This document shows positions 8,835-49,428 of a stretch of 64,000 nt of DNA, piece by piece. Origin of the DNA: Hyaloraphidium curvatum SAG 235-1 (Eukaryota; Fungi; Monoblepharomycota). The translations under genes were made by a program, and so were the position numbers. The stretch lies in the NCBI GenBank assembly GCA_025558095.1, contig JAIVFI010000026.1:372001-436000 (forward strand), read 5' to 3'. Below the pieces are notes generated by a model, which was given only the letters and a program-made list of their open reading frames with translations, was not told the DNA's origin and ran no database searches. Position 1 is the first letter of the stretch. Every line of letters starts with the position of its first letter.

Positions 8835-8945
8835 AGGATCCACGTCGCCGGTTCACCATCCTGCTCATTCGGTCCGTCCACGCTCCGCAGGCACCGATGA
8901 CGGGCGCTTCATTCGGCCTTGCCTTTTTTCCACGGCGGTCGCAGC

Positions 8946-9836: not shown

Positions 9837-9841
9837 TGCGA

Positions 9842-24396: not shown

Positions 24397-25170
24397 TCAA
24401 GTGCGGAACGGGTGCACTGTCCCGGCGGCTCCGTGCTGTTTGGCGGTTCCCGCCTGGGGCCCCAAAGGGCCGAGCGGGCCCGCGCCAGGCCCGCAACCGA
24501 GCGGCGAGTCATAGGAGAGGAGGAAGGCGAGCGACATGCGGTCGGGGAGGTCGGAAGGGCCCGGTGGTGCCGTGCACGGCCCGGGCATGTGGGGCGGCAG
24601 CGAGGAGGTGGCCGGGGAGGCACGGGTGTTCGGCCCCGGCGCAGCAGAGCCAGAACCTGGTTCTACAGGAGAACTATTGGGGGAAGGCCGATGTTTCATG
24701 GAGTGCGGATCCGCACAGAATGAATGTCTTTGAAAATCATGTGCGAGGACGGAGACTTTTGGCACGTCATCCGGAGCGAGCAGCGAGAAGGGGCTCGGGG
24801 GGACGGGCAACGCCTGCCCAGTAAAGGGGAGAGAGTAAATTGTAGGGGGGCTCGTCCCGAAAAGGAGCGGGGGGGGCCACGCAGCAGTTGAGGTGTGATC
24901 TCTGGAGGAAGAGGGTCCCCCATTTCCCAAAGGGCAGCAGGCGAGGAGGCCGACGGCTGGGGAAAGCGTCTGTAGGTCTCTGAGAGCTGGCTGTGATCCG
25001 TTGGCGGACGGCAGCTGGGGGTGGCCGCCCGGCTGCGGTGCGGAGTCGCTTGGGTAGACGCAATGGTCCCCCCGGAAAGCGCAGCGCCCGCAGGCTCCGG
25101 GTGCCCTGTCGCACTTGAGGTGCACCTTGGCGCACGCAAAGCACGATACGCGGCGACTGGGGGACGACAT
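24397..25170 (-). CDS. Fungal Zn(II)2Cys6 transcription-factor-like protein
   Basis: SCFACAKVHLKCDRAPGACGRCAFRGDHCVYP, followed by a Pro/Ser-rich tail with RMSLAFLL. Confidence 0.75.
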   Translation of the reverse strand: MSSPSRRVSCFACAKVHLKCDRAPGACGRCAFRGDHCVYPSDSAPQPGGHPQLPSANGSQPALRDLQTLSPAVGLLACCPLGNGGPSSSRDHTSTAAWPPPLLFGTSPPTIYSLPFTGQALPVPPSPFSLLAPDDVPKVSVLAHDFQRHSFCADPHSMKHRPSPNSSPVEPGSGSAAPGPNTRASPATSSLPPHMPGPCTAPPGPSDLPDRMSLAFLLSYDSPLGCGPGAGPLGPLGPQAGTAKQHGAAGTVHPFRT

Positions 25171-25949
25171 GCCCTGCGAAGCAAGGGGGTTTGGAAAGAA
25201 GGGTGCAAGTGGATGAGGCACGACCACGGGCCAAGGCCAAGCATCTTCCTGCAAGCATGCGCTCATGCATTTTCCTACATGCTTCTGGTGCGGAATGTGC
25301 CAATTCCAACACGGCGACGCTGTCGGCCAGCCGGGAGTGCACGTGGCGGCGCTCCCAACGCAGCTGCTTGGGCTCCACCCCGATCGCCCCACGACTCGGC
25401 AGACGCGCCAACTTGCATCCTCACCTAGCGAGCGCGGATTCGGGTCTCTATGGGTGTGCAGAAGATTGACTGCTCGAATTGAATCGGATCGCTGTGTCGT
25501 GGCAGGATCCCTCCGCGGTGACCACCCCAGTGTTTGCTTTCGGTCCGCAGTCATGGCTAGAAAACGCGGGGCCAGTCCGCGGTGCGTCCACTGCGTCAAA
25601 GGCAAATAGAGCACAAACTGGCGTTACGCCTTATGGTCTTGACGAGTCCATGAGCGCCCTGTCCAATCCGTTGGAGCGTGACGTCCTGATCCCCGCACGA
25701 CTGCGTCGACCCCGATCGACGAAAAACGCAACCCTTCCTTCGATTGTCTGTGCAGAAATCTTCTTCTCTTCCGAAACAAAGCGCATGGCAACGCCGCGCA
25801 TCCCACGCATCCCCACCTGATCTGGGCCCAGGGCGAGCACCACATGCGCGCCCACCGCCGCCAGGAACCCGCCAACCTGGACTTGTGGCGGGCAATGAAC
25901 CCGGACTTTGGCGTCCGACTCGCCTGCGACGCCGACCTCCGCGCTACGG

Positions 25950-26528
25950 CGTACGGGACGTCAAGAGCTTGAACATCCTCGTCTTTCCGGACGGTGTCGT
26001 CAAGTACGCGGATTTCGGCGCGGCGCGCGTGGCGCCGAACCCCTTCTTCCACCAGCCATTGGAGACCAACGTCGTCACGCTTCCGTACCGCGCACCGGAA
26101 CTGCTGCTAGGCGCCCGGGAGTACCGCTACGGCATCGATGCGTGGGCCCTCGGCTGCGTGCTGGGCGAGCTGATCTGGCACCGCCTGTTTTCCCGCGTTC
26201 GGCCTGTGGATGCTTGCTGGAGTCGATCGCCGCCCTGCTTGGGCCGGTGCCCGCCAGCTGCTCCCTCCGTCGCTTCCCGCGCTACGGAGACTACGCCGCG
26301 CGCATCGACGCGGCCGCTGCGGGTGCTGCCGATGCTTTTGCCGAGCCACCGGCGTTTTCGGTCGCCGAGGGCGAGCGCGCGGGGTTGGCCAACCTTCTCC
26401 AGCTCTTGAGTGCGCTGCTGACGTGGGAGCCCGTCGAGCGCGCGGATGTGGGCCGTGTGCGCATGTGGAGCGACTCGCCTGCGGTGGCGGAGGTGCCGGT
26501 GGTGGACGAGCCCGTGCAACGGATGTAG
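25950..26528 (+). pseudogene. CDK-like Ser/Thr kinase fragment
   Basis: RDVKSLNIL, ADFG, VVTLPYRAPELLLGAREY...IDAWALGC. N-lobe is absent and there is a frameshift near 26180. Confidence 0.8.
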
Positions 26529-26558: not shown

Positions 26559-27242
26559 TCATCTTCGGGCGCCCTCCAACAACATGCCCCAAATCTCCTC
26601 CGCCGCCGCTGCCTCTCCCTCGTCCGCTTCCGCGCGCAGCTTGCCAAAATCGACGTGCTGTCGCACGGGCATCGCAGCGCCGCGCGATGCGAGCAACTTC
26701 AGCGACGCCAGTAGCGCGCGCGCTCCGCTCGTCTCGCCCAGTTGAGCTTCGTACACGCCCGCGAATCCCGGTCGGAAGCCTGTGTCGACGAGATCGGCGA
26801 GCTCAGGCACCCTCCCCCCGTTGAGCAATGCCGTCAGCTGGGTGCTCCCGATGCCGCGCTCCATCGCGCGCTGCGGGGATTCCCGGTCCCGAATGCCGCC
26901 TGGGACGACGCCGGCGGCCGCCTTGCGCCAGAAGTCCACGGCGTCCGGCGTTTCCGCACGCGCAAGGGCCGCCGTGGCCACGTCGAACGCCGTGTTGTGC
27001 CCGGCATCGTCGCTTCTCTGCCAGATGCCAAAGATGACCTGAATCATTGAGTCGGTGAGGAAGTGGTGGGCGTTCCCTGCCGCAAAGAGCATGTTTTCCG
27101 CGGTTCCGCGGCTGCTGCCGTGGCCGAGGCCGGTGTGCTCCGGTGGAGGCGGATCGTCGTTGGCGGGGCCGGGTGCGCTCTGGATGGCGCCAGCGCTCCC
27201 GCCGATGCGTGGACGGTGGGCTCTGCGGTGTTCTCTCGCCAT
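26559..27242 (-). CDS. Hypothetical protein, paralog of 9842-10429
   Basis: Same shared motifs as 9842-10429; start may be 27092. Confidence 0.65.
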   Translation of the reverse strand: MAREHRRAHRPRIGGSAGAIQSAPGPANDDPPPPEHTGLGHGSSRGTAENMLFAAGNAHHFLTDSMIQVIFGIWQRSDDAGHNTAFDVATAALARAETPDAVDFWRKAAAGVVPGGIRDRESPQRAMERGIGSTQLTALLNGGRVPELADLVDTGFRPGFAGVYEAQLGETSGARALLASLKLLASRGAAMPVRQHVDFGKLRAEADEGEAAAAEEIWGMLLEGARR

Positions 27243-27320
27243 TGGACTTGCCCCAGCGAAGATTTGTGGGCGAGTTGGCCCGCAAAGGTCTTAAGGTGAA
27301 AGTGCGAAAATGACGCTGTT

Positions 27321-28532: not shown

Positions 28533-29578
28533 ATCGTCCCGGATGCGCGGATCATCAGCGCATGCGCACGGTGCGCATGCGCGCATGAGCGCGCATTTTT
28601 TCGGCGATCACAAGAGTCGAAGGGTCTTTTTTCGGGTCTGGATCCTTCTTGTGCGCGCATAGTGCGAATGAGCGCGCGCGCACTGTTCTGAGAATCTTTG
28701 CGCTCTGTCGCGGGCTGGTGCCAGAAACCCCCCGGTCAACAGCGGCATCCTTCTCTAGGCCACGCAACCACCTCTTGCCCTCCCTTCCGCCGCCCCTATG
28801 CTCGGCTCGCCGGCCTCCCAGCGCTCCGTCGCGTCGTCGGACCGCGGGAGCTTCAACCCGTCGCGGACGCCGTCTCCCCGCACCAACCAAGGGGACGCCG
28901 ATCCCGGAACCCTCTCTCTCGGCAGCAAGCAGACCGCCATACCTTACTGGGAGTCCCCCATCGTGGGTCCGCCCGTTTCGCCGCGTGAAGGCGAGCGCTG
29001 ACGCCGACCGGCCTCACCAGCCGCTCTCGGACTATCCGTCCCTTTCAACCAAACACCCCATCGCTCCGGAGGTGGCCGCCGCCCTCCTCCGTCGCCGCGC
29101 GGCGTCTGACCCTCCTCCGCCGCAGGAGATACCCGACGAGAACGACAAGCGCCGGAGGATCTACCAGCCCCCCGGCAGCTCGCCGAATCCGGTGCGGTAC
29201 GCGCCCCTCGGCGCTGCCCGCGCTCGACAGGATGCGCCGACCTCGGCCACCACGCTGAAGCGGCCGGTGCGGGTGCCTCCGCCGCTCCTCGTGGAGGACG
29301 AGGAGAGCGACGAAGACCCTGGCCACCACGAATGCCACGACGACGAGGACAAGGACGACGAGGGGACGAACGATGCCGAAATCGGGGAACGGAACCGCCA
29401 GAAGTTTGCAGCTAGGTACCCGGTGAGCAGCCCGGTTTGCCGCTGCGCCCACTGCGATTGACGCGAACGACAGCGCCAGCCGACCGCACAAGCCGCGCTA
29501 CCGGAACCTCCCGCCGAGCGCGCAGGCGACCCCGCCGATGACGGTCATGTCGGCGGCAGCGAGGGGGGGGAAGCGTCG

Positions 29579-32500
29579 ATGGCCGTCGACGAGCAAGGGC
29601 GGGCGCCGGAGCCGGAGCCGGAGCCCGAGCCGGAGCGGGAGCGGGAGCGGGAGCCGGAGCACATCTGGGCAGAGAACGTCCGTCGTGCCGCTGCCGAGCT
29701 GAACGACGGGACCGCGCCTCGGCCGACGGAGCTGCTGACGCTGCTGCAAAAGTATGCTTTGATCAAGCCCACGACATTCACCATGTTCGGCCCGCCTGGC
29801 CACACCGGCGCATTTGGCATTGCCGCGGACGACCGCATGGACCTCGCAACGTCGTACTACGTTGCTCGCTACCAGCGCTACCCGCCTCCTCGGCTGTACC
29901 TCAACGAAACGCTTCCCCGCGGCACGCCGATGAGACTCTACTTTGATGTGGACTTTCCCTCCGAGGCGACCCTCGACGCGTTCTTGACGGTGTCTGGACT
30001 CCCCGACGAAGCAGCCTTCCTGACCGCGCTTCTGGAAGCCACGGACAAGTGCATTGAGACCGGTGCCTTCTTCCCGCGCGACGAAGCCGAGGAGACGCGC
30101 ATGTTCTTTCGCCTCGTCTCCAAACGCCGCGGAAAGCGTGGAAAATACCACATTCACTACCCGCACGCGATCGTCGACGCTCCGTACGCCAAGTACTTGG
30201 CCCAGGACGCCGGGCGGCGGTTCATGGCGTCGCTGCCGGGGGGTGGGGCTGCGTACATGGGCCTCCCCGCGCCGGAGCCTACCGGGTCGCACGCTGGCGC
30301 CGAGGCGGAATCCCCGGCCGCTCCTGCGACGTGGGATGCGACGGCCAAACTGTTCGACACCGGAGTCTACACCAGCGGACTGCGCGTCCTGGGCAGCTGC
30401 AAGAGGGATGTGACGGACCAAGGATACGCGCTGCTTTCTGAGGACTTCCAAGAGATCGACCTGCCGTCGTTTGCCCAGTTCGAGGCCACGCTCGTCAGCG
30501 TCAACCGCGGCGACCCGTTGCAGGCACGCGTCGCCGAGGCTCTTGAAGCCGATTCGGGCGGCGTGGCCCCGGGTGGGGACAACTACGGTGAAGACACTTT
30601 CATCCAATACGACGGCACGGCCATCCGCCTGCGGAACACGGATGATTCGCGGGCGGAGCTGGCCTTGCGCGCGATCGACTATCTCCGACGCGAAAAGCGC
30701 AAGCCGGAGCATGCCTTTCACGCGCACGAAGGTGATTTCGTGCCGAGGCGCATCACAACCAAAAGCGCGGACGAGAAGAAGGTCGGCAAGAAAAGCCCGC
30801 CGCTCAAATCGGTAATCGTCGATCTGCACGATGTGTACTGCATCTACAAGGGCGGGAACCACAAGCGGGCACGCGAAGGTCGGGCGTGCGTCTACATCTG
30901 TTTCAGCGGCAGGAAGTGCAGCATCCGGTGCCTGGACGAGAGCTGCAAGACGAAAGCAGGCAGCAAATGGATCAGTGTGGCTGTCTGCGGGGTCAACATC
31001 TGGGACTTGGTGGGGCCTGCGACGCCCCCGCTCCCGGCCCCCATCGCCCCCCGACCTGCCCCCTCCGCGCGTCTCCTGATGGAAGAGAGCGACGCCGACA
31101 ATGAGGCCGACGAGGAGGCCGACGAGGATCACGCTGCTGGTGCGGGCGACGACGACGATCCCGTGCTGCCCCCCGCGGTCGATTTTGGTACTCCTGCGCC
31201 GGCGACGCCTCCAGCGGCTCCGGCCCGTGCCCGCGCGGGACCCGCCGCGCGCCCGCACTCTGCACCGCCCCCGCCTCCGGGGAACGCCGCCGAGGAGGGT
31301 GCGGGAGCGCTGCTGGTGATCGACAGCGCGGAAGGGACCGCTGTGGTGGACGCCGCGCGCTACGTCGTCCGGAAGGCGCTCTCGGACGCGGCCAGGAAGG
31401 CCAAAGCCAACGCCACCAAGCAGGCCCTCAACGACGCCGTCGCCCTGGTGACCCAGTCGGCGTTCTACGTCAAGAAGACCAAGGTCAACGGGAACGTCCT
31501 GTACACCATCCAGGACCAGCACGGCGCATGCGTGGAGATGCGCCAGCGGACGCAAACCCACGCGGTCGTGCGGCACACAAGGATCGCCGAGGTGGAGGTC
31601 GCACTGCGGTCGGCGGACGCCAGGGCCATCTGGGGAGGCGATTGGTCTGACGAGGTGCTGCTTCTTTCTACACGGGCCCAGCAGGAGGCCCTGCAGATGG
31701 TTTCGGACTACGCCAACTGCTCGCCCACCAAGGTGACCGTGGAACGGATGGATCTGGAGCCCGGATTCAAGGGGACCGTCGCCAAAGTCCACAACAAGGA
31801 GCAGTGTCCGTTTTGCGAAACGGAAACGCGGCGGGACTGGACTTCGACGGCCCCGGGGCTGCAGATGACATGCCCCGACTGCGGGAAAAGCATGTTCCGC
31901 AAGGCGATCCCGATCCCGGACACGTACCCTGCGCTCCGCATGTCGCTCACGCAGATCAACATCTCCAACCTCACGGTCATCAACCAGACCGTGGAGAGCG
32001 GACGGGCGCAAAGCGCCGAACAGATCGTGGGGCAATTCCTGGGAGACGGCATCACGATCGACCCGTCCAGGGGCGCAGAGTGGAACACACGTCTCCTGAA
32101 GGCCTGTGGCGGCACGCACGCAAGCGTCGCTGCGTTTTACGCCTGCAACAACGACCTGGAGAGCCCCGCCGGCTGCCCCTATGTCTACTCCATCGGAACC
32201 CAGAGATGGGCCAAGTTCAGCACGCGCTGGTACTACCGCACCGGCGTCAAGACGACCCCGTTCGCGTTGATCCGAGGACGGGATGCGCTGGAGCCGTTCT
32301 ACAAAGCCCTCGCCGCATACGACTCGGCAGACCCGGAAACCCGTAAGGCGCGCCAGGAGCAGATCAGGAGGGTGATGACCGACATGGAGGACGACCGGTT
32401 CCAAAAGGCGGTCGTTTCTCAGCTGGAGAAGGAGCTGGAGGTCACCCCGGAGGCGTTCGACGACTTACTGGACACAAACCCCGACATTCTGCAGTTTGAC

Positions 32501-33712
32501 GACGGCAGTTACGACCTGCGTACGGACACGTTCTTTCCTGGCGGTCGTCGGGAATGGTTCCAATCGAAATCTGTGGGATACGACTATGCCGAGGTCACTC
32601 GGGTGACGCCCGAGCAGGACAAGGAGGTCGAACGTATCGCCGCGGAGATTGTCCCCGACGACGAGCAGCGCCGGTACACGCAGAAGGCTCTCGGACTGTG
32701 CGTGTCCGGCCATCTCAACCACCGTGCACACTTTTGCATCGGATCGGGTGGTAACGGGAAAAGCATTCTTTTTGGTGGCACTGGGTCTGCTCTCGGGGAA
32801 TATGCGATCGTCATCGACGCTGCCATATTCACCGATCAACTCGCCAACTTGGAAGCGCCCTCCCCACAGCTCATGCGTATCAAGGGCACTCGTCTGGTCC
32901 TCATCACGGAATGGAACAAGAAAACATTGGAAGTGGCCCGCTTCAAGAACTACGTCGGCGGCGAGAAGATATCCGGCAGAAACCTCAACGGGAACCCGGT
33001 GGTCTTCAAGGTCATGGCAAAGTTCTTCGTCGCCTGCAACAACGAGATCCAATTCGAAGGGTCGGATGGCGGCGTCGTGCGCCGGTTTTGTCAGCTGAAC
33101 TTCCCCGTGCGTTTCGTGGACGAACTGGACCCGGTGGAGGAGGCGGCGGCGGTGAAGGGCGGGAAGAAGTACTTGCGACAGAGGGACCTCACCCTGGAGC
33201 GCCGATTTGAAGAGGAACTCCGGCCTGCCATGATGAAATGGCTCCTGGCGGGGTACCGCCTGTACAAGGCCGAGGGGTTGAACCCCCCCAAAGCCGTTGT
33301 GGAAGCTACGGCTCAGGGTTTGGATGCAAACAACTCCGTCTTGCGTTTCCTGGAGGGTACCTGCGAGATTGGCGTGGGCGGCTTCGTGGAGGGGGCAACG
33401 CTGCATGGTCTGTATGTGGCGAGGAGACGGGACAAGATGTCGCCTGTTGAGTTCGGCAGGCAGATGGGAGCACTCCGCAAGGAAGGACGTGCTTTGTATG
33501 GCAAGGTGACGTCGGAGAAGAAGGGGGGCAAGACGGTGTACGTCGGCCTTCGCTTGAAAGGACCGGAGGCGCGCCTGCAGGACGAGACGACTACCTCCAC
33601 GGGCGCCCGGCCCGCCGAGGCGGAGCGGGACGAAGCAGCCGCCCCTACCGGAACGGGCACTCAGGAAGTGGATGTTGCCAATGCAGTGGAGATGGAGGTA
33701 GACGCATTGTGA
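29579..33712 (+). CDS. AEP primase + D5-like SF3 helicase
   Basis: LYFDVDF, KYHIHYP, FDTGVY..GLRVLGSCK, Zn-binding Cys; LQFDDGSYDL; Walker A GSGGNGKS, LVLITE, VACNN, GVVRRF. Confidence 0.9.
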   Translation: MAVDEQGRAPEPEPEPEPEREREREPEHIWAENVRRAAAELNDGTAPRPTELLTLLQKYALIKPTTFTMFGPPGHTGAFGIAADDRMDLATSYYVARYQRYPPPRLYLNETLPRGTPMRLYFDVDFPSEATLDAFLTVSGLPDEAAFLTALLEATDKCIETGAFFPRDEAEETRMFFRLVSKRRGKRGKYHIHYPHAIVDAPYAKYLAQDAGRRFMASLPGGGAAYMGLPAPEPTGSHAGAEAESPAAPATWDATAKLFDTGVYTSGLRVLGSCKRDVTDQGYALLSEDFQEIDLPSFAQFEATLVSVNRGDPLQARVAEALEADSGGVAPGGDNYGEDTFIQYDGTAIRLRNTDDSRAELALRAIDYLRREKRKPEHAFHAHEGDFVPRRITTKSADEKKVGKKSPPLKSVIVDLHDVYCIYKGGNHKRAREGRACVYICFSGRKCSIRCLDESCKTKAGSKWISVAVCGVNIWDLVGPATPPLPAPIAPRPAPSARLLMEESDADNEADEEADEDHAAGAGDDDDPVLPPAVDFGTPAPATPPAAPARARAGPAARPHSAPPPPPGNAAEEGAGALLVIDSAEGTAVVDAARYVVRKALSDAARKAKANATKQALNDAVALVTQSAFYVKKTKVNGNVLYTIQDQHGACVEMRQRTQTHAVVRHTRIAEVEVALRSADARAIWGGDWSDEVLLLSTRAQQEALQMVSDYANCSPTKVTVERMDLEPGFKGTVAKVHNKEQCPFCETETRRDWTSTAPGLQMTCPDCGKSMFRKAIPIPDTYPALRMSLTQINISNLTVINQTVESGRAQSAEQIVGQFLGDGITIDPSRGAEWNTRLLKACGGTHASVAAFYACNNDLESPAGCPYVYSIGTQRWAKFSTRWYYRTGVKTTPFALIRGRDALEPFYKALAAYDSADPETRKARQEQIRRVMTDMEDDRFQKAVVSQLEKELEVTPEAFDDLLDTNPDILQFDDGSYDLRTDTFFPGGRREWFQSKSVGYDYAEVTRVTPEQDKEVERIAAEIVPDDEQRRYTQKALGLCVSGHLNHRAHFCIGSGGNGKSILFGGTGSALGEYAIVIDAAIFTDQLANLEAPSPQLMRIKGTRLVLITEWNKKTLEVARFKNYVGGEKISGRNLNGNPVVFKVMAKFFVACNNEIQFEGSDGGVVRRFCQLNFPVRFVDELDPVEEAAAVKGGKKYLRQRDLTLERRFEEELRPAMMKWLLAGYRLYKAEGLNPPKAVVEATAQGLDANNSVLRFLEGTCEIGVGGFVEGATLHGLYVARRRDKMSPVEFGRQMGALRKEGRALYGKVTSEKKGGKTVYVGLRLKGPEARLQDETTTSTGARPAEAERDEAAAPTGTGTQEVDVANAVEMEVDAL

Positions 33713-33762
33713 ACATTCAATACAGCACACCTGCGACACGTCATTGCAACCACTCTTGGTGG

Positions 33763-34512
33763 TCGCTCCACCGCCGCTCCGACCCCCTGGAAGATGCATA
33801 GCACCCCCGTGTGCATCTCTGGGCGGCGCACAGGCCCGATGGGAGGGCTGCCGGGCGAGCCACGGGCGGTTTTTCATCTTCCGGCATCTTCCAGCATCTC
33901 CCAACATCTCCCAGGCCTTCCACCCGCCTGCCCGACGCCCGCGCGGCCACCCAAACGCTTGCCCAGACTCGGGACCATCGTTTGGAGCAGCCGGGACGGG
34001 GCAGGGGCGTTTTGGCGCGTCGGGGCAGTGTCGGCGGAGCGCTGGAAGATGGATCCTGGAAGATGGCCCCGGCCCCCCCTCCCCGAACCCTCCTGCTCCG
34101 GCTAAACAATACTGTAGTCTGTTTTTGTGTAATGAGGAGCTTGCATGCAATTCTCAGTATAGAAAATTTACTAGATAGTGGTAGTGAGTCACGTGACCGG
34201 GCCATGGCCAGTGGGCTCCCTGTACAGCCGACCTGGGCCAAAAACATCTTCCATCTTCCCTGAAACCCTCCCACGCGCACATGCTCGCCCCACCGCCGCT
34301 CCGACCCCCTGGAAGATGCATAGCACGCCCGTGCGCATCTCTGGGCGGCGCGCTGGCCCGCTGGAAGCCCTGCCGGGCGAGCCACGGGCGGTTTTTCATC
34401 TTCCGGCATCTTCCAGCATCTCCCAACATCTCCCAGGCCTTCCACCCGCCTGCCCGACGCCCGCCCGGCCGCCAAAACGCTTGCCCAGACTCGGGACCAT
34501 CGTTTGGAGCAG
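33763..34512. repeat. Origin-like block 2: ~228-bp direct repeats with 10-bp iterons around an AT-rich core
   Basis: 33763-33990 is nearly identical to 34285-34512; each holds four CATCTYCCRR units. Inverted CTGGAAGATG copies at 33787, 34042, 34056 and 34309. AT-rich core ~34102-34175. Confidence 0.75.
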
Positions 34513-34851: not shown

Positions 34852-35168
34852 GCGGGAGTGGTTGAGCGGCGAACGGCGGCGCCGAGTCGGTGGCGGCAGT
34901 GGCGACAACAGGCGCGGCGGCGGTGGCGGTGACGACAGCTTCAGTAAGGCGCTTCCGAGGCGACGGAGACCGGTCGACGTCCTTCGGCGCGGGCGAAACG
35001 CGCGTTCGCGCGGGAGGGGTTGAGCGGCGAACGGCGGCGCCGAGTCGGTGGCGGCAGTGGCGACAACAGGCGCGGCGGCGGTGGCGGTGACGACAGCTTC
35101 AGTAAGGCGCTTCCGAGGCGACGGAGACCGGTCGACGTCCTTCGGCGCGGGCGAAACGCGCGTTCGCG
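34852..35168. repeat. 158-bp tandem duplication
   Basis: Two near-identical consecutive copies starting at 34852 and 35010. Confidence 0.9.
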
Positions 35169-35418
35169 CATGCGCGAACGCGCGCTCCATCGGGGGGTGG
35201 CTGAAAATCCCCCGGTCGACCGGGGCCTGGGTCGCGCTATGCGCACCAAGTGCGCGCACCGCTATACGCACCAAGTGCGCGCACCTCAAGTTTCGCCCCG
35301 GCGCGCGCCTTCCCGGGCGGTTGTGAAGCGAGCATTGTCCGTGCGAGTCCAACTTCCGCTCCTCGCCCGCTCCGCTGCCGTGCGCTAATAGACTGGCCCG
35401 TCGCCCAACAGCGAAACG

Positions 35419-35886
35419 ATGTCGACGACCCAGATCTCGGAAAGACTGGCCCTCGACCTCATGGGTATCATAGCGCGGGGTCAGGTTCCCGTCCTCGTCT
35501 TCGTGGGCCCACCGCCGCTGTCAGAGCCGACGGACATTGCCGTGCTACCTGCCGCCGACTATGCCGCCGCTGCGGCGCTGAAGGACGCGACGCCGTTCGC
35601 GGAGATGGTCATCGACACTTTCCAACTCAAGAAGACCACCACCAAGGCGACTTGCGAGAAGGCCGGCTGCAAGAAGAAAGGCGTTCGCAAGCTGGTCTGG
35701 CTGACGAGCCTGCAACCACGCACCCACCAGTTCGACACCAACCTGCCTTTCATCATCGTCTCCCCCTTCCACGCCTGCTGGAAGCACATGACGGAGCTGA
35801 ACGACGTGGCGGTGATGGGCATGAAGTCGGCATTGGGAGGGGATCCGGACAAGCACACCTTCACGACGGTGGCATACCACGGATGA
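35419..35886 (+). CDS. Hypothetical protein
   Basis: ATG ORF with strong GC3 bias and a CEKAGC...CWKH possible Zn site. Confidence 0.6.
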   Translation: MSTTQISERLALDLMGIIARGQVPVLVFVGPPPLSEPTDIAVLPAADYAAAAALKDATPFAEMVIDTFQLKKTTTKATCEKAGCKKKGVRKLVWLTSLQPRTHQFDTNLPFIIVSPFHACWKHMTELNDVAVMGMKSALGGDPDKHTFTTVAYHG

Positions 35887-36154
35887 ATGTGTACACCTGA
35901 CGGCGAAATTCATTCGCATCCGCGACTTCACCGTCAAACGGATGTGAGAACTCGGGGGCTGCAGCGACGGCAGGCGAGAACGGGGCGCCGAACCGCTTCA
36001 TCCACAAACGCCCGACAGACCGCAGCCACTCTTTTCGCTTGCGCCTCACATGCGCGCGTCACACCAGTGCGCCCCCTGCCCCCCCCCCTGCTCCACACAC
36101 CTCCGCAACCCCCGCACATCGCGTGACGACCGCTTGGGCACTTTGCCCCTCGCC

Positions 36155-36267
36155 TCCTGCGCCGTTATGCGCGCGCCTGCGCCTTGCCTCGCATCCTGCG
36201 CCGTTATGCGCGCGCCTGCGCCTTGCCTCGCATCCTGCGCCGTTATGCGCGCGCCTGCGCCTTGCCC
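36155..36267. repeat. 39-bp minisatellite, ~3 copies
   Basis: CCTGCGCCGTTATGCGCGCGCCTGCGCCTTGCCTCGCAT repeated. Confidence 0.85.
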
Positions 36268-36929: not shown

Positions 36930-37535
36930 TCACCCGACAGTGACCTGGGTCACGCGCCCTGCTCCGTCCACCCACGCCGTAGCGCGGTCATCACGACTCT
37001 CCATCGTCATCGGCTGCCCGTCAGCAATGCGGACCCACATCCCCAGCTCGGCAAACTTTGCCTTCACTTCGTCAACATGCAGTTTTCGCCTCTCGACGTC
37101 GCTTGCGAGGAGCGTCGCTTGCGCGTGCCGGCGCTGGAGGAACTCCGCGGACGGACCCGGCGGTAACGGAGGCGAGTCCCCGAGGTCCATGGGAGCCCCG
37201 ACCGCCACCAAGTTTGGGTCGTCTTCGTCGGTGGGGAACGGACCTTCAAAGTTTGGTGGCGCCCAGCGAGCCGGAACCCCCGGGGTCAAGCTCCATTCAG
37301 CAGTCCCGAAAACAAAGGAGGTCGGGAGTACGGGATCTCCGATGGGCGCCTGCCGGGACACAGAAGCCGAGAAGGCGGAATTTGCCGTCATCTGGTACAG
37401 AGGGGGAGTCGCCGGACGAGGTCGCTCCTCTGTCTTAGCGTTGTGGCGCGGGGCAAACACCACAACCAGCACGATCATCGCCGCGACCAGGAGCGCGCCC
37501 CCGACGATGACGAAGAGCGGAATCCGGCTTGCCAT
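36930..37535 (-). CDS. Membrane-anchored protein with C-terminal peptidase inhibitor I78-like domain
   Basis: N-terminal TM helix; C-terminal VRIADGQPMTMESRDDRATAWVDGAGRVTQVTVG. Confidence 0.65.
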   Translation of the reverse strand: MASRIPLFVIVGGALLVAAMIVLVVVFAPRHNAKTEERPRPATPPLYQMTANSAFSASVSRQAPIGDPVLPTSFVFGTAEWSLTPGVPARWAPPNFEGPFPTDEDDPNLVAVGAPMDLGDSPPLPPGPSAEFLQRRHAQATLLASDVERRKLHVDEVKAKFAELGMWVRIADGQPMTMESRDDRATAWVDGAGRVTQVTVG

Positions 37536-38075
37536 CGTGGGTGCGTGCGAGCGTTGCAAGAAAACAACGCCCATCCGACGAGCATCACGACCCCGGCCAC
37601 TCCGACTCCGTCGGCACCCCGGCCCACCGGTGACGACCCCGGTCTCCGGAAGCGGCGCCTTGCTCCCTGTCCCCACTTTCGCGGCGTCCTGCGTGGACCC
37701 CGCCTTTCGCGCCTGCAGCGCCCCCGGCGCCTCCGCCGCCTGTCGCGCTCAACCCCGGGCCCGCCACACACGCCAAACTGGGACGACGGCCTTGCACGCG
37801 GGCTCACGGTCGCGCGGAGAGGTTGCATGTGTCTCAAGCGCCCGACACCGCAGCGGCGCGGCGCTGGGCGACTGGTGGCGGCCAGGACGCTGTCGGGGAG
37901 GTCACCGGAAGTGCGGGGGCGGCGGGGGTTTGCGGAGCAGGGAGTGCTGGGGTCGCACGGAGGTGACGCCTCCCGTGGGTGCACGCCGCGCGGCGATCGG
38001 CGCCCGCCGCCAGGGTGCGCCGCCGCGGGCCTCTACCGATGAGTTGACCAAACATTTTCGCGTGCCCCTCCCAGC

Positions 38076-39290
38076 ATGACGGCTCCGCTCCAGCTGCTAC
38101 CAAGAGAAATCGTCGCGGCGATCGCCGCCAGATCCGTTGACAGCTGCCTCGAATGCATGCGAACCCAGGTGGAGGACCCGCCGTCCCGCGGACGGGACGG
38201 ACCGGCAAAGATCAAGCAAGTTTGCGCTGAAATGACCAATCAGCGAAAGGTGAGCACGCTTTTCAAGGACACGATCGACAAACGCTGGAAGACACTAATG
38301 GCACTCCGCGATCTGGAAGGCACGTTTGTGTCCATTCTGCAAGATGAACGTCTCTTCCAGGACGCAATCCATTCGTGGTTTTTCTGGAATCTGTGGTTGC
38401 AAGTGCACCCGCAGCGCCCTGTCTTTTCGATCGGCAGGCTTTTTGCACGCCTCAGACACGCCCCGATCGCCCAGGTGGAAGCCGTGCTCACGGACCTCGT
38501 CACCCATGACGTGCGTGCGTTCCTACCCCGGAAGCCGGATCCCACCGTCGGGCCGCTGGTCGCTCGCCTTCTGTCGGATCCTCCGGCGCCCGACGTCCTG
38601 CGCCGCTTTCTCGGCTGGCTCTCGGACGCCCCTGTATTGCGCGGCCAAGTCCCCTTCACCAACCCCTCGGCCGTGCGCACCGCCGCCGACATCGTAGCCA
38701 TTTTGGAGTACCGCATCTTTGCCCCCAAGCAAGTGCTTGCCGCGGCCATGCGTGTGCCCACGCAGCTGGAGACGGGCACGCTGTCCCAGCTCTACAACGC
38801 CTTCTCCGGCGGCATTGATCTGCGGGGACTGCACCTGCCTGCCGAACACCTGATCGATCTTCTCGTCAACAGCCCGGGCTTTGTGCGCGACTTTCGTGGC
38901 AGCGCGCAGCTGCTCACGTGGTTGATCCTGGAGTTTGTCTTTGCCGACAATGGCGGCGAACATGAGACGGTGGCCGAGCTGCTGGAGGCGTTTCCGACGA
39001 CGGATTACCTGGACGCCGCACGAGTTCGCCCCGAAAAGGCCGCGGAGACCGTCCTGAGTGCCGTGTGGACCGCTGTTGACGAGCAGGAATTCTACGACTG
39101 GACGGCGCTTGAACGCCTTCCGCTGCTACGACGGCTGGCGGACGCCCTGCCGCCGACGCTCCTCGTCCCGGACGGATTGCTCTGGAAGCCGGGAAGACCG
39201 GACGTTTCCAGCGTCCTCACGCGCGTGTTTTTCGGCAACGCTTCAAAGCAGGTCCGATTGCAGAAGAAGTGGGCTGAAAGGGACCTCTGA
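38076..39290 (+). CDS. F-box-like helical protein, paralog A
   Basis: LQLLPREIVAAIA; colinear full-length similarity to 40142-41356. Confidence 0.75.
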   Translation: MTAPLQLLPREIVAAIAARSVDSCLECMRTQVEDPPSRGRDGPAKIKQVCAEMTNQRKVSTLFKDTIDKRWKTLMALRDLEGTFVSILQDERLFQDAIHSWFFWNLWLQVHPQRPVFSIGRLFARLRHAPIAQVEAVLTDLVTHDVRAFLPRKPDPTVGPLVARLLSDPPAPDVLRRFLGWLSDAPVLRGQVPFTNPSAVRTAADIVAILEYRIFAPKQVLAAAMRVPTQLETGTLSQLYNAFSGGIDLRGLHLPAEHLIDLLVNSPGFVRDFRGSAQLLTWLILEFVFADNGGEHETVAELLEAFPTTDYLDAARVRPEKAAETVLSAVWTAVDEQEFYDWTALERLPLLRRLADALPPTLLVPDGLLWKPGRPDVSSVLTRVFFGNASKQVRLQKKWAERDL

Positions 39291-39502
39291 TGCTCCCGAG
39301 GGTCTTAAGGCAAGGAGGCCAAACGCAAGCGTTTCCCTGAATGAGTGAGGACGCTGTCGGGGAGGTCACCGGGAGTGCGCGGTCGGCCGTGGGGGCTGCG
39401 AAGCAGGGGCACGCTGGGGTGGCACTGGGGTGACGCCTCCTGTGGTGCGCCGCGCGACTGGTGCTCCGTCAGCCGCCAAAGTGAGCGCACGGATCCGTGC
39501 AT

Positions 39503-40012
39503 TCAACGCTCACGTGTACACTTCTTTGCATGTGTCGCGCAGAAACGGCCCCCAGGGCGCGCGGCCTTGCTGCACCAACGGTGAGCGGTAGTCGCCCAGC
39601 ATGCGCATTTTGGCTGCGAAGGCGGACGGCGCACGGGCACCGGCGAGGGCGGGCGGCGCACGGGCGAGGGAGAACGGCGCACGGGCGAGGGAGAACGGTG
39701 CACCGGCGAGGGAGAACGGACCAGGCGGGCAGGGCCGCTTGCCCGTGCCTTGATCACCTTGCCCTCGCCCGCCAGCACCTGCGCGGCATCCATGTCGGCG
39801 CGGATGCCAACAAACGTGGGAAAGCGCGGGACGCCCTTTTCGCTGAGCTCCTGGTAGCGGAACGTCACGACGGTCTCGCCTTTCTTGAGTCGGTGGCCGT
39901 TGATGAGCGCCATAGGCACCTTGAGCCCCACCGTCGTGCCGTTGGCCAGCTGCAGAGTCACGGCTTGCTTCCCGAACTTGGTGCCGACGTACACTCCTTC
40001 CGCGTTCCGCAT
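39503..40012 (-). CDS. DNA-ligase OB-fold fragment + RSPSPV repeats + Cys/His motif
   Basis: GETVVTFRYQELSEKGVPRFPTFVGIRAD (ATP-dependent ligase C-terminus), four RSPSPV-type units, CACWATTAHRWCSKAARPGGRFCATH. No adenylation domain. Confidence 0.7.
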   Translation of the reverse strand: MRNAEGVYVGTKFGKQAVTLQLANGTTVGLKVPMALINGHRLKKGETVVTFRYQELSEKGVPRFPTFVGIRADMDAAQVLAGEGKVIKARASGPARLVRSPSPVHRSPSPVRRSPSPVRRPPSPVPVRRPPSQPKCACWATTAHRWCSKAARPGGRFCATHAKKCTRER

Positions 40013-40141
40013 CAGCACAATCCACGCCGGGGGCGGGGTCTTAAAGCGAGGAGGCCAAACGCAACCGTTTTCTGCATGAGTGAGCCCAGTGCAATGGCGG
40101 ATGTGTGGGTCGCATTTTCGCACACTATCGCCAGCACTGTC

Positions 40142-41356
40142 ATGCCTCCATCAATTCGCCTTCCAACCGAACTTGTTGAGACAATTGCCTCGGAATCGGT
40201 CAATGATTGTTTCACATGCATGAAAACACATGCCGGCCCCCGCGGCCGCAGAGCCGGAGCGGCCGTCATCAAACGCGCGTGTGCGGACATGGCGAATCAA
40301 CGCAAAGTGAATTCGCTGTTCAAGGACGCCATCGATCGACGATGGAAACAGCTGATGCGGAATCGTGACACGGAGGGCACGTTTCTGAAGATCTTGCACA
40401 ATGAACACCTCTGGGAAAACGCAATCAATTCGTTCTACTACATGGCCGATCTCTGGCAGCAAGTTCATCCACAGAGAAGCATCATGGACGTTGGTCATCT
40501 GTTTGCGCAGCTCACGACAGCGCCGCTCCCCCAAGCGATCGACGTGCTGAAGGGCGTCGTGACACATGATGTTCGAGCGTTTTTGCCCAGCACAAATCTC
40601 CCCGAGGTCCAGCCGCTCGTCGACCGTTTGCTGTCGGAGCCCGAACTGCCATCGGACGTCTTGCGGGCTTTCCTCGGTTGGTTGAGCGACGCCCCTGCTC
40701 TCCACGATCGAATTCTCTTCACGAATATTGCGGCATTGCGCACGGCGGACGACGTCAAGTCGATCTTGGAATACAGGCTCTTCAAGCGGGAGCAGATCTT
40801 ATCTGAAATCGCAGAAGTGACCGAACACTTCGAAACAGGCGCCCTTTCGACGCTCTACAACGAACTCCCCGAATTTGAGCTCTGGGGAGCCAACTTGTCT
40901 GCGCGCCATCTCCTTGACCTCCTAGAAAACAGTCCGCGTTTTGTGCAAGACTTCCTGACGAGCTACCAACTCAAGGAATGGTTCATCACTGGCTTTCTCC
41001 AGAGCTTCAATGGTGGTGACTTGGCCGCTGAGCTTGTCAACGTGTTCCCGACGGACCGCTGGCTCGCCGCCCAAGGCACAAATCCCGAGGAGGCCGCTCG
41101 CTCGCTGCTCTATGCCATTTGGTGTGTCGTGCGCGACCACCCCGAGATCACCCACTGGTCACCTCTCGAACGGATTCCACTGATCCACGACGTTGCAGCC
41201 CTGCTCCCACCGACGTTCATGATTGATGACGATCTTCTTTGGAGGCCGGACGCCAACCAGGTTGTTTCCAGGATCCTGATGCGCGTGTTCCACAAAAATG
41301 CATCTGAGCATGTACGGCAGTTGGAAGATGCCTTTGCAAGCGGCCAGGTGCTCTGA
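40142..41356 (+). CDS. F-box-like helical protein, paralog B
   Basis: IRLPTELVETIA; shares NQRKV..LFKD.ID.RWK, VTHDVRAFLP and FLGWLSDAP with paralog A. Confidence 0.75.
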   Translation: MPPSIRLPTELVETIASESVNDCFTCMKTHAGPRGRRAGAAVIKRACADMANQRKVNSLFKDAIDRRWKQLMRNRDTEGTFLKILHNEHLWENAINSFYYMADLWQQVHPQRSIMDVGHLFAQLTTAPLPQAIDVLKGVVTHDVRAFLPSTNLPEVQPLVDRLLSEPELPSDVLRAFLGWLSDAPALHDRILFTNIAALRTADDVKSILEYRLFKREQILSEIAEVTEHFETGALSTLYNELPEFELWGANLSARHLLDLLENSPRFVQDFLTSYQLKEWFITGFLQSFNGGDLAAELVNVFPTDRWLAAQGTNPEEAARSLLYAIWCVVRDHPEITHWSPLERIPLIHDVAALLPPTFMIDDDLLWRPDANQVVSRILMRVFHKNASEHVRQLEDAFASGQVL

Positions 41357-42417
41357 CGAGTCGCTTGCGACGCATCCGCCGTCCGGCGAAGCGCTCCGGG
41401 GCCCGGTGTTGAGCCACGTCACGGATCGCAGGCACGGGTGGCGCGCCGATCGGCAGTCGGTGCTTCTCCACAGGTTTTCTTCGCAAATAGAAACCACATG
41501 GAGCGCTTTCTGGTAGAGGGCATCGCTCTTGGTGTTTTCCGGATCCATCCAGCGCTTTCCGGTGATGTCGTGCTGATTGAGGACGGCTGCGCCGGGCGAG
41601 TCGTGGCCCGGGCGCACCCTGCAGGCTACGTGACTGCGCCGTGGGGGCGATTGCGCCTCAGCAAGCTGGGGCAGCGCCTTGCGCGCCGTCTAGGAGTTCC
41701 CGGAAGGAGGTCCGCCAAGCACATTTTGGACGACGGCCGTTGGCTTACGCCGTACGCCGGCCGTTGACCGCGGGGTGCGCAAGCTCGCTCACCGGCGCCC
41801 CCTGATCCATTCACGGGACGCGGCCAAGTTGGAGAGGGCAATACAAGCAATGCGGGCAGCCTTGAACAGGACATAGTCGTGTATCGGGGCTAGTTGGTAC
41901 ATTCCCCCGTCTAGAGATCCGCATTCAAGGTCCTGGCGTCGCACATGGAGGCAAGCATCGCAACTATCGTCTACCAGCGACGTAGATGCTGTTTTGTGCC
42001 ACCTGCTTCGCAATCACATGTCCGGTTCGCACTGCGTTGGCGCGACCCGACCGGGGGTACCCGGTCCCGACCGGGGGTACGACCGGGGGCCCGGTCCGGG
42101 GTGTAGCCATATAAACGCAAGCGCCAGACCATCTCGCAACACGACCCTTCTCTTCCGACGCCTAGTAGCGGGCCGCTTGGGTATCTGACGCGTCTCAATC
42201 GAAGTTGTTTGTGGGTCCAGCGGCGCGCGCGGCGCAGCGCTGAGCACTCAGTATCTGACAATTCCCGGCACCGCACCTCCGCGTCTGCCCGTGCCACCGC
42301 ATCAAATCGCAGAGCTCCAAGCAAACGGCGGGCGCCTTGTGACACCCTCCGCCGCTTGGCGGCGACGAGCGACCCCGTCCCGACCGGCACCCTCTCGGCC
42401 CGACTCCTGCCGACGCA

Positions 42418-45400
42418 ATGACCTCAAACGCCGTCCTCACCCGGACTCTCCCCTTCGGCCGCCCATCGGCGAGCCGTTCATCAACCCCCGGTGGCGCCGC
42501 GAAAGGTCGGCGCGTACAGAGCGCTGTCGCTCCAAGCACAGACGGGAGCGATGGGTCAAGACGGGACCGCCGTTCGTGGCAGTCTGAAGAGCCAGATGAA
42601 GAACCCAAGACGTTTCTCCAGGCCGCACGGGAGTCGTGGGCGTCGTCCAAGCCGCGTGCAACGGTGACAGTGCGCGCCGGTGGGAGGAGCGACGAGTCTG
42701 GCGACGAAGAGAGCAACATCCCCAAGCCCTTCGACACCCGCCTGACCCGCGTCTCCCTCCGCGGGCTGCCGCAGTATCTACACGATCTCGACCAAGACTT
42801 CCGCCCTGTTCGCGGCGTCCAGCTCATGTCCGCAAAAGTGCACCAGTTCCTTGTCACATCAGACGGCGGGCCCGCAGGGAAGTTGGATCCACGCGCCGTC
42901 ATCCTCAACGTGGAGCAGAACCCGGCAGCGACTCGCAAGAGCGTGGAGCGGGCGATCCGGAAGCAACGCCCCGTCTACCGCTACATCATGGAATGTGTCG
43001 GGACATCGGCCTGTCCGGCACCCGGCGTCAAGTGTCCTATGCTCCTGGGGTGAGCCCGAGCGTGCCAAGTGCTCAATCTCTACTGACACGGACCCGAAAG
43101 CGTCTTCATCTTTGCGCACGACATCCAGCACGCTGTTGTGTTTACAAGGAACTTCCACGACCCGCCCAATGAAGAACGCCGCCGAACCGCTTCAATGCTC
43201 CGTACCCTGGCGTTCGACTACTTCTTGCGGTCTGGATCGACGCCCGCACAGTTCATCCTGGACGAAGGAGGCAACTTGAGCAAACTGGGCGGCATTCCGG
43301 AAGGCACGCTCAAGAGCATTGCGCGACAGGCGCGGAAGGCCAAGTTCGGTCCCGTGAGCCTCAACGTCCTTCGCAAACTGGCCAGGGATCGGCCCACGAA
43401 CGTCCAACTTCTCGGCCTCGCCGATGATGGCGAGGATATTGGGTGCGACTTTTCGTACGCCTTCACCGACACAGTTGGACTTGTCTTTGCCATTCTGTAC
43501 TCCATTGTCGTCGGCATTGACACCAGTTGGCGGCGCAAGAACGCCCAGGGGTTCCCTTTGACCGGACTCGTCGCGTTCGATCTCTTTGGGCGCCGTGCAA
43601 GGCCTCTCGCCTTCCTCTTCTCCACCAACATCAAGCGGCCTACGCTCAAACGCTTCCTCAAGTGGTTTGTCGCCCGGGTGCAGTCCTTCTGCCGGGACCT
43701 CCTTGCCTCCCCGGACGAGAGCGGATGGCCAGCCGAATTGCGGGGCTACCGGGAACTGGTCCAGCGGACGGCGACTACGGGGTGGAGGCCGAGGTGCATG
43801 ACGCTGGACAAATCGTACGCCGAGCTGGGGGCTCTCCAGGACGTTTTCGGCATCGGACTTGGAACGGTTTACCGTCTATGTTACTACCACATCAAGGAAG
43901 CCTTCATGCGCCGTGCTGGGAAGAGCAAGGATGGAAAGCGGGGGAGGAGGGATGGCGAGGCCGGAGAGGAAGACGCGATCCCCGATTCAGTGATTCCCAG
44001 AGGGGTCAGGACTGCGAGCTTTTTCGCTTTCAGGGACCTTTGCGCGAAAGCTCACAACGATGAGCAGTGGGAAAACGGCAAGAAGGAGCTACTGGAGAAG
44101 ACGATCCCCGATCTCCTCGAACGAAACGCAACCGACCATACCGCCGAGATGTGTCGGCAGATATCGCAGTGCCAGACGGCGTACGTCCAAAAGGACTGGC
44201 TCAACGACACCTGGACGCCTCTGGTGGCCGACTACCTGCTCCCGAGCGATCTCGACGTGGGCGACTGTTTCACGAACAACCACACCGAGGTCATCTGGAA
44301 GGTCATCGACAACGTCATCCTCTGCGGGAACTTCCATATTGCGACTGCCATCGTGAAGCTGGACCGTATCTGGCTCTACAGCAAGCTTACGGACGATCGC
44401 GGACACATGCACCCCAAGGTCGCCGAGGCTCTTGAACTGGGGACGGAGCTCTGGGTGAAGGGACACGTCAGGCTGTCGGAGGGCGAGATCTATGGGGTCC
44501 GTTGCGGTGATGGCAGCCGCGCCAGAGTCGACCTGTCGGCGCCGCGTCGATGGTGTGACGTCCCCGCGTGTCGCGTGGGCTCCAACCCGCATCGGTGCAA
44601 GCACTGGTTCGCCGCCGATCTCATGCGCCACAACGGCACCTTTGCCGAGTGGGAGGAGGAGAGCCGCAGAGATTTCGATTTCGAACTCTCTATCGTGCAG
44701 ATCGATGAAGAGGTTGCGGGGGTGGAGGTGGAGCAGCAGGACGAACCGATGGATCTGCAAGAGCCGCAGGCCGGCATTGGGGAGGAGCAAATGGAACCGG
44801 AGGCACCGGAGGCACCGGAGCAATGGAGAGACAACCCCAGCCTGGGCGATCATGACTTGGACGGTGCAGATGGCGTCGACGACCAGGCCTCCATCGATCT
44901 CCCGCCGCCCATCGATTTTGGCAACCGATCAACCTCGCCTCCGCCACCAAAGGCAGCACTACCGACGCCGTCACCTGCACCGGAAGAGGACGTCGACGAT
45001 GACGATGGCAATCTGACAGTGCAATCGAACACATCGCGCCAGCCCCGGGGTAGACCCCCGAAGAAAGCACCCCCGCTTCGGCCAAACCGGCGCAATTATG
45101 GGATTGTGGACTCTTCGGACGACGACGCCCCCCTTGGCGAAGAGCGTCCTCCGGCAAGGAGAACGGTCAAAATCACTCACCTTCCAGGAACGCAGAGGGC
45201 CAAACAACTGGGTGTTGAGAAGTCTAGGACAAAGCAGGCGACAACTACATCGAATTCGAATTCCAAGAAGAGGAAACGGGAGTTAGCCCAACAACCCGCA
45301 CGACCACCGCCGACGCCTCCCACGCTCCTCGCTTCGCCCGTCAAGCACAAGCGCACCGCCTACAGTGCGGAACCGTCTCTGACCTCATCAACCAACCAAT

Positions 45401-46218
45401 GGGCCGACGCCTTTGCTGTACTGCTACCTGCGCTGTACCGGGTACTACGGCGTTCGGAGAAGCGGGGTGTGATCCCTCCCCGCCTACTCTCCATCGTCGA
45501 ACGCGACGCGGGCACGAAGAGTTCCTTCGACGACTACGCGGACCACGGCTACGTTTTCCCCCCGGAGCACGATCTGAACTTTGTGCGGGATTGGGTCGCT
45601 ACCGAGACCTTGCGCAAGATCGGGGCCAGTGCGAGCACTGGGGGTGCCGTGGAGCTGATACTGGAGTTCCTCGGCAGCAGTTTCTCCGCAGGGGCCAAGT
45701 GCGAATGCGAGCCATCGACACCATCCAGGCTGACGTTCAGAGACCTCCCGATGATCAGGATAACAACCACGGGGTTTGCGGCGACGGGGAGTGCGGCTGC
45801 GAAGGAGCAACTGTGGCAGTCTGCGCTCCACACAGCCTGGCAAGGTCTTGCATCTCGGCGAGGCAGCTGCCGCGGCAACTGTGGGAGCGCCACCTTCCAT
45901 CTCACGGGAGACGTCATGCCCCCCCTTCAGGTCTTTTCCCTGGAACCCGGTGACTACCAGATTGACCTCCCTGCTGACATCACCATCGGTAAGAGCAACT
46001 TCCACTGGATTGGGACAATCTATGGTGGGGGCAAGCGTTTGTCGACACGGTGGGAGGGATCGGACGGTTTGGTCTGGCAATGGAGCAACGGACGCATCTT
46101 TCCGTTCAGTGCTCCAGATACAAACGACACGGTGGCATGGGAGGAATTGAGCGCGGGGGAACGCTTTGGGTTGAAGGGCGGAGCCAAGGCAGAACTTGTA
46201 TTCTACGCTCTTGCTTGA
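42418..46218 (+). CDS. Mutator-like (MULE) DDE transposase with SWIM finger; intron 43050-43100
   Basis: GIDTS (D), MTLDK (D), LCYYH (CxxH), TNNHTE (E), SWIM-like CDVPAC...CKHWFA. A 51-nt GTGAGC...CTGAC...AAG intron joins ORF 42418 in frame and restores a C..C...H motif. Confidence 0.85.
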
Positions 46219-46264: not shown

Positions 46265-46393
46265 AACTATGCGTGGCTAGCCCAAAACTGTGCGCCAAGC
46301 AACCACAAACTATGCGCGCCTCATCCTAAAACTATGCGCCGAAAATCCCAACCAATTGAGACTATGCGCAAAACATCTTTTGCTATGCGCGGA
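46265..46393 (-). repeat. Right (sub)terminal inverted repeat, ACTATGCGC array
   Basis: About six ACTATGCG/ACTGTGCG copies; reverse complement of the 638-738 array. Confidence 0.75.
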
Positions 46394-46410
46394 TCAACTT
46401 TTCCGAGAGC

Positions 46411-46610
46411 GGAGAAAGGAGATGGCCTGCACGGGAGCACGGGCAGAGCGAAAGAGGAGAGATGGCCTGCACGGGAGCACCGGCAGAGCAGAGAAAGAGA
46501 GATCACCTGCACGGGAGCACCGGCAGAGCAGAGAAGGAGAGATCGCCTGCACGGGAGCACCGGCAGAGCAGAGAACGAGAAAAGGCCCGCACGGGAGCAC
46601 CGGCGGGGTG
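46411..46610. repeat. 40-bp minisatellite, 5 copies
   Basis: ACGGGAGCAC recurs at 46431, 46471, 46511, 46551 and 46591. Confidence 0.9.
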
Positions 46611-49360: not shown

Positions 49361-49428
49361 ACCGTGGAACTCCTCAATGCCACGCACTCGTTCAACCTCG
49401 CATACAGCTGCCAACCATGCACTAGAAA

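Follow-up and report, generated by a model that had tools for sequence, protein, structure and literature searches.

Directly behind a spliced D5-type primase-helicase gene (primase-helicase 2), in the stretch of 64,000 nucleotides analysed here and in the following called the window, lies a block of short repeats (block 2) that is likely to be the replication origin of this helicase, bound by its predicted winged-helix tail. Layout, position and a distinct iteron word agree with this assignment, as they do with the preliminary description of this DNA, which had tied an origin-like block to its own D5-type primase-helicase. Start sites of the D5-type primase-helicases of eukaryotic DNA viruses and of their endogenous relatives are proposed, but not shown, in those parts of PMC11296320 on which we draw; a search of open-access full-text literature with the term iteron gave no such origin in a eukaryotic element, and the terms 'origin of replication' and 'inverted repeat' are absent from PMC13533422, on giant viruses of zoosporic fungi. 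What is new here is that the setting is nuclear and the gene spliced, that two cassettes are paired whose words differ, and that a Mutator element possibly encloses them. With two sister helicases, two blocks and two words, the locus makes up a small two-way test, and it poses the question whether bacterial rep-ori logic is valid for a spliced gene in a eukaryotic nucleus. The helicase 2 cassette is composed of the following features.

28798-33712, plus strand: primase-helicase 2, with AEP primase motifs, zinc ribbon, D5_N, SF3 helicase and predicted winged-helix tail; spliced frame of 1583 aa
33335-33556, plus strand: predicted C-terminal winged-helix domain of helicase 2 (model residues 324-397; helix-strand-helix-helix-strand-strand), the putative iteron reader
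33760-33990, plus strand: direct repeat copy A, with a reverse iteron at 33789 and four forward iterons at 33875-33912 with 10-bp spacing
34044-34065, minus strand: pair of reverse iterons flanking the core towards the helicase gene, with the G-rich strand on plus
34103-34191, no strand: AT-rich core of low GC, the likely unwinding element
34245-34259, plus strand: pair of forward iterons that overlap each other, beyond the core as seen from the gene
34282-34512, plus strand: direct repeat copy B, with a reverse iteron at 34311 and four forward iterons at 34397-34434

The word CATCTYCC was found 26 times in the 64-kb window compared with 5.68 ± 2.60 times in 100 shuffles, none of which reached 26, and 14 of the 26 sites fell within 33789-34434, with 10 on the plus strand and 4 on the minus strand, confirming that such iterons occur in both orientations behind primase-helicase 2. 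Read along the plus strand, their order is one reverse, four forward, two reverse, the AT core, two forward, one reverse and four forward. The block had been placed about 50 bp after the gene, in good agreement with the distances measured from the stop at 33712, at 47 bp to the start of the direct repeat and 76 bp to the first iteron. The direct repeat is also present, its length being 231 bp rather than the 228 bp first given, and its two copies are 94% identical with 13 substitutions and no gaps. That the iterons lie inside these repeats around the AT-rich core holds for 10 of the 14 (per copy one reverse and four forward, the latter spaced by 10 bp in both copies), but the four that flank the core (reverse at 34044 and 34058, forward at 34245 and 34252) sit in the unique spacer outside the repeat; without the second copy, the block would hold 9 iterons. 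All of the 13 substitutions between the copies leave the iterons untouched, which is a weak effect (P 0.08). The AT core is modest, with a GC content of 0.31 over 70 bp from 34103 and 0.34 over 90 bp, in a window of about 0.6. Rfam gave no matches in the window; a scan for sigma-70 promoters and terminators, not meaningful for a eukaryote, likewise gave none.

The gene of helicase 2 is intact and spliced. Three introns at its 5' end skip 28963-29020, 29070-29123 and 29422-29472 (with ends that may be shifted by up to 2 bases), the unspliced ORF extends over 29579-33712, and the Walker A motif is intact at residue 1055. One run showed seven GT-AG joints at 28-47 kb, of which three belong to the 5' part of the helicase 2 gene. 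None of the runs is recorded as RNA, and X1 was treated as RNA because of such joints. The host is a eukaryote, as the splicing of helicase 2 shows. The introns are contained in an N-terminal extension (28798-29590) of low complexity and about 206 aa, a sign of adaptation to nuclear expression. RNA-type contigs continue from the helicase 2 gene into repeat copy A, and cover in run X1 is absent over 34320-34482, to which no weight was given.

The tail domain of helicase 2 alone gave no sequence match in Pfam or PDB, and its fold was assigned from the topology of the model together with whole-length structure matches. The C-terminal-half models of both helicases of the window were confident (pLDDT 88.9 and 89.3). 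Their best matches among solved structures were ASFV C962R and poxvirus D5/E5, with Foldseek E values of 3e-20 and 6e-23 and about 20% identity, and these matches run from end to end and take in the tail. D5 proteins commonly have a winged-helix tail, which is not proof of sequence-specific binding. The predicted tail of helicase 2 would bind the CATCTYCC repeats, which their 10-bp spacing would put on one face of the helix; the enzyme would then load rings to either side of the AT-rich core, open it and prime synthesis. For elongation a polymerase of the host or of a helper would be required, none having been detected in the element. We infer the binding and melting by helicase 2, the reading by each helicase of its own word only, and the present activity of the system.

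Among known systems, the origin of SaPI, with its Rep or fused PriRep5, follows rep directly and has its iterons to both sides of an AT-rich region, two or more per side and in opposite directions, as in block 2 (PMC9371898). The SaPI iterons are read by a C-terminal winged helix of an SF3 primase-helicase, such as is predicted in helicase 2, with cognate-specific binding, and words differ between Reps (PMC9371898). The SaPI origin has between six and twelve iterons, each five or six bases long (PMC9371898), however, as compared to 14 sites of 8 bases and a 231-bp duplication in block 2, which moreover lies in a eukaryotic nuclear setting, behind a spliced gene and with two cassettes in one element. 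Unlike a bacterial chromosomal island of the SaPI/PICI kind, the window has spliced GT-AG introns and genes with Zn2Cys6, WD40, RING and RapGAP domains. Phage P4's alpha protein and other D5 proteins bind origins through a winged-helix domain (PMC4889955), and alpha, whose winged helix binds repeats, is a D5-group primase-helicase as helicase 2 is predicted to be (PMC4889955, PMC4234260). P4 differs in its DnaG-type primase and in being a bacterial satellite. Its crr, a pair of about 120-bp iteron-filled direct repeats behind the alpha gene, resembles the 231-bp repeat. ORF904 of pRN1 has the order of Prim-Pol, SF3 and winged helix of helicase 1 (see below) and an origin downstream of the gene, but pRN1 is an archaeal plasmid with a stem-loop origin devoid of iterons (PMC4234260). 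By analogy, block 2 and helicase 2 would work like a rep-ori module of SaPI or P4, without being a member of those elements.

A single layout caller was applied to the window, to phage loci, to giant-virus-type loci and to control windows. Within the window it called blocks 1 and 2 only (3 of 105 tiles). As a phage control family we used tailed phages whose D5-type primase-helicase shares about 28% identity with helicase 2, with 12 of 46 loci left out (7 short or incomplete, 5 distant); the remaining 34 loci, which are close kin, were positive in 30 cases within 1.4 kb of the stop, and the 175 control windows in none. In 27 of these 30 called loci, as in both blocks of the window, the gene is faced by the G-rich arm. 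Four of the distant phage loci were examined with an earlier caller and not called; that caller was positive in 11 of 51 downstream regions and 2 of 353 control windows, and in 5 of 211 window tiles, including one that lay outside the blocks. Mostly giant-virus-type D5 loci gave no calls in the 107 of 123 that had enough downstream DNA (controls 1 of 887), which counts against an origin, in a test that has low power because the median GC of these loci is 0.28. Block 2 escaped a stricter caller under which a word had to equal the background in GC content, since CATCTYCC falls below that level; relaxing the GC requirement to 0.4 and to 0 gave identical results.

In the phage family the word tracks two residues of the tail, with N+R going with a GTGCA-type word in 11 of 12 loci, K with GGGAC in 17 of 19 (2 uncalled) and S+R with CGGAC in 3 of 3, where residues and classes were picked after the data had been seen and one locus, L044, was an exception. 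The word changed 9 times on the tree, and the link between residues and word was not significant on independent pairs (4 and 5 pairs, P 0.125 and 0.0625). In these freshwater tailed phages (L015-L055; for example L015 at 8736-9010 and L017 at 8745-9025) the iteron-AT-iteron blocks are clean and follow a Prim-Pol/D5 helicase at a distance of 200-1300 bp, and apart from L044 the word switches between near-identical phages along with the two tail residues.

Block 2 is less neat than the phage blocks, its core being hugged by 2+2 sites only, with four forward sites also on the left. It could instead be a terminal or recombination structure (joined ends, a resolution or an integration site) or a transcription-end region, which we regard as unlikely. 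The location of block 2 between convergent frames would suit this, as would the RNA-type contigs that reach copy A from the helicase and the ability of the left half of the block to fold back (z -1.72, with 1 of 20 shuffles equally good); PLV inverted repeats beside primase-helicases have, furthermore, been proposed to serve both recombination and replication (PMC11296320). The arms around the core are nevertheless non-complementary apart from the iteron words, and the 10-bp-spaced short words, the AT core and the polarity match those of the phage set, all of which weighs against these alternatives.

The 231-bp repeat is explained most simply as a recent local tandem-type duplication that added five sites to this putative origin, because it is young (94% identity) compared with the old split of the helicases (35%) and has no counterpart at block 1. 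The suggestion that it could be a recombination scar was not borne out in the sense of a mark of replicon fusion, again because block 1 is without a copy. Four further tandem duplications were found in the window, at 34852-35169 (158 bp, two copies, 99%), 36148-36266 (39 bp, three copies), 39633-39719 (21 bp, four copies) and 46406-46604 (40 bp, five copies), which shows that duplications of this local kind are frequent in this DNA.

Neither a contig nor a long read was found to extend across the two copies of the 231-bp repeat, as would be the case if it were an artefact of assembly. This explanation is nonetheless exceedingly improbable, as copies A and B differ by 13 substitutions, the contigs of two runs (one of them possibly the source of the assembly) carry both versions with no differing letters, and three of the four repeat junctions are bridged in these contigs by at least 31 letters on each side, the fourth by 30. 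Also very unlikely is that the block is a host MITE or a TRIM, a small LTR element, which landed after the gene by chance and is unlinked to helicase genes. Both repeat copies can be read as TG...CA units of 231 bp around an interior of 291 bp, which is where the likeness ends: there is no target-site duplication, primer site and purine tract are absent from the right places, block 2 has no terminal inverted repeat, the 231-bp repeat has no other copy in the window, loose ends were seen in none of the 11 contigs placed at 80% likeness (in shallow runs), and the same layout recurs behind helicase 1.

That second cassette consists of two features.

13992-14390, minus strand: block 1, with five TCGGGGCAT-type sites, an AT core at 14086-14155 (GC 0.29) and four inverted sites; 55-bp inverted arms
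14547-19478, minus strand: primase-helicase 1, with Prim-Pol, zinc ribbon, D5_N, SF3 and predicted winged-helix tail; 1643 aa

It was clear that block 2 has the same position relative to its helicase as block 1 and a different iteron, as the preliminary description had held, with both blocks lying behind their own D5-type gene and the 9 sites of the TCGGGGCAT-type word of block 1 differing from CATCTYCC. The AT cores of block 1 (0.29 at 14086) and block 2 represent the two lowest-GC 70-bp and 90-bp windows of the 64 kb. The two blocks have two short stretches in common, in the same order (10-12 and 13 bp), but homology of the blocks on these grounds was not significant, as at least 8 of 172 window tiles scored as high, compared with 5 of 1000 shuffles; the alignment score of the whole blocks was matched by 72 of 300 shuffles.

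Helicases 1 and 2 are 35% identical over 676 aa and form a sister branch with support 100 in a tree of 46 SF3 cores, unrooted and made with a quick method. A comparison of their C-terminal domains, which had been proposed as a check, gave tails about 25% alike against 35% for the whole shared region. Their N-terminal primases differ, with Prim-Pol in helicase 1 and AEP motifs in helicase 2, and BLASTP between these N-terminal regions detected no homology. Protein searches with the helicases gave a best identity of 30%, their own protein aside, and the top ranks of the profile search were occupied by Prim-Pol or AEP plus zinc-ribbon D5 proteins.

The joint presence of two cassettes may go back to a fusion, to an old duplication or to the insertion of a mobile module. 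One reading, which we find quite conceivable, is that one cassette arose by an old duplication within the lineage of the element or came in as a mobile helicase-plus-origin module, with word and tail diverging together and with the origin function as proposed above. The sister position of the two helicases is in line with this, as are the two short stretches common to blocks 1 and 2 (weighed down by their lack of significance against real sequence) and several tandem paralogue sets within the element; mobile, repeat-flanked D5-like helicases and replicon replacement have been proposed for entomopoxviruses and PLVs (PMC11296320). The preliminary description had instead seen a cointegrate of two related replicons, and that the element of 45.7 kb unites two once-separate replicons, each with its own origin specificity, is a somewhat more doubtful proposition. 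In its favour, both helicase-plus-block cassettes are complete, and they differ in word as well as in primase domain (Prim-Pol and AEP); there is also a difference in third-position GC (0.69 vs 0.79) and one further distant paralogue pair across the halves (9629-10426 and 26562-27290, 30%), and many of the nearest profile matches sit on contigs 4-9 kb long, which hints at small stand-alone replicons. The claim was weakened, however, by the sister helicases, by the lack of a second gene set, with A32, the recombinase-like gene and the transposase all single and the gene order not mirrored between the halves, and by the lack of any junction repeat around either cassette (best local scores 20-34). 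The proteins on short contigs, moreover, form a clade separate from the pair of the window, and such contigs may be fragments.

Elements with a single cassette, sought as had been suggested, were not found among the viral and metagenome contigs searched. No close relative with downstream DNA was found in viral contigs with either helicase 2 or helicase 1, or in metagenome contigs in their alignment, and the loci obtained with wider alignments were all just 20-43% identical to the query. A scan with the family motif returned 8 loci, none encoding a relative, and the triple-iteron pattern was present in 2 viral contigs, neither with a helicase match. A clade of Prim-Pol or AEP plus D5 proteins on contigs mostly of 6-7 kb (P0040-P0046, P0053, P0056 and P0062) possibly represents a family of small eukaryotic replicons, or else fragments.

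Both cassettes lie within a stretch of about 45.7 kb that also contains an A32 ATPase and a Mutator-type transposase and has weak inverted ends, as given by the following features.

662-744, plus strand: left end candidate, an array of GCGCATAG-type words, inverted relative to the right end (71-80% over 61-94 bp)
3766-5247, plus strand: tyrosine-recombinase-like ORF with one homologue, 66% identical, named from Hyaloraphidium curvatum
8052-8834, plus strand: A32-type packaging ATPase (Pox_A32, E 3.3e-11)
42418-46218, plus strand: Mutator-type (MULE/SWIM) transposase with one intron, spliced frame of 1249 aa, ending about 65 bp before the right-end array
46284-46391, minus strand: right end candidate

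The domains found in the window included Zn2Cys6, F-box, kinase, WD40, RING and RapGAP, and the named homologues came from monoblepharid fungi, which makes a fungus of this group the likely host. The element also holds a solo Prim-Pol domain, a DNA-ligase fragment and a weak match to T5orf172 (E 0.18). No capsid protein was detected in 49 and 24 ORFs with Pfam and in 16 with PHROGs, a search that divergent or spliced capsid genes could escape, and no DNA polymerase B was detected among the scanned ORFs. The ORF at 3766-5247 gave no match in Pfam, PHROG or PDB and is presumably tyrosine-recombinase-like, judging by motifs. The transposase gave no match in Pfam, while its best match in the atlas was 0.94, the family being common to 9 of the 10 best named matches.

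Eukaryotic-virus D5-like primase-helicases beside repeats proposed as origins are known from PLV end modules and from the mobile helicases of entomopoxviruses, in the company of tyrosine recombinase and T5orf172 and with two primase-helicases in one genome (PMC11296320). The present element shares with PLVs an A32-type packaging ATPase, but differs from them in having internal iteron-AT-iteron units in place of terminal inverted repeats (PMC11296320) and no detected capsid gene; its own ends are 71-80% alike over 61-94 bp, and its recombinase-like ORF has no family match. Teratorn and Pack-MULEs are similar in that a DDE transposase and inverted ends enclose viral or captured genes, with the difference that Teratorn combines piggyBac with a herpesvirus and that the cited Pack-MULEs are at most 7 kb (PMC6431247).

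Enclosure of the 45.7 kb by a Mutator element is only suggested by its features. MULEs have terminal inverted repeats and target-site duplications of 9-11 bp. Here the transposase is present, but the inverted arrays (662-744 and 46284-46391) are weak and 45.5 kb apart, and no target-site duplication of at least 7 bp was found at the tested ends. The stretch 662-46391 may be a giant MULE that carries viral cargo, or a MULE into which a large insert has come. A bolder reading, which we hold to be rather improbable, would make the element a giant, capsid-less Mutator-type transposon of an early-diverging fungus with two engulfed viral replicons, copying itself in the nucleus by means of two D5 primase-helicases, expressed or intact, each with an orthogonal, phage-style iteron origin, and with the MULE transposase acting on its ends. 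If true, such a Mutator-bounded element would be a new kind of self-copying cargo transposon in fungi.

Some further observations were made along the element. No inverted array was found near the 5' end of the transposase. Between both helicases, at 24397-26409, a Zn2Cys6 transcription factor domain and a kinase fragment represent host-type cargo, and four short paralogous ORFs lie beside the recombinase-like gene (5239-7160). An ORF of 223 aa at 21057-21728 (plus strand) has an N-terminal MG motif and one C-terminal hydrophobic stretch, with no firm family match, and we take it to resemble myristoylated membrane proteins known from giant viruses. An RNA-type contig 8867 bases long extends over 37014-46183, with several genes and four introns up to the transposase, which is not in itself proof of a single transcript. 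RNA-type contigs about 90% alike and with loose ends at 35468-35591 and 38855-38957 indicate paralogues elsewhere in the genome. Both flanks of the element, at 1-406 and 47348-49363, carry rearranged direct and inverted copies of one repeat, which we take to be the tail of a LINE reverse transcriptase.
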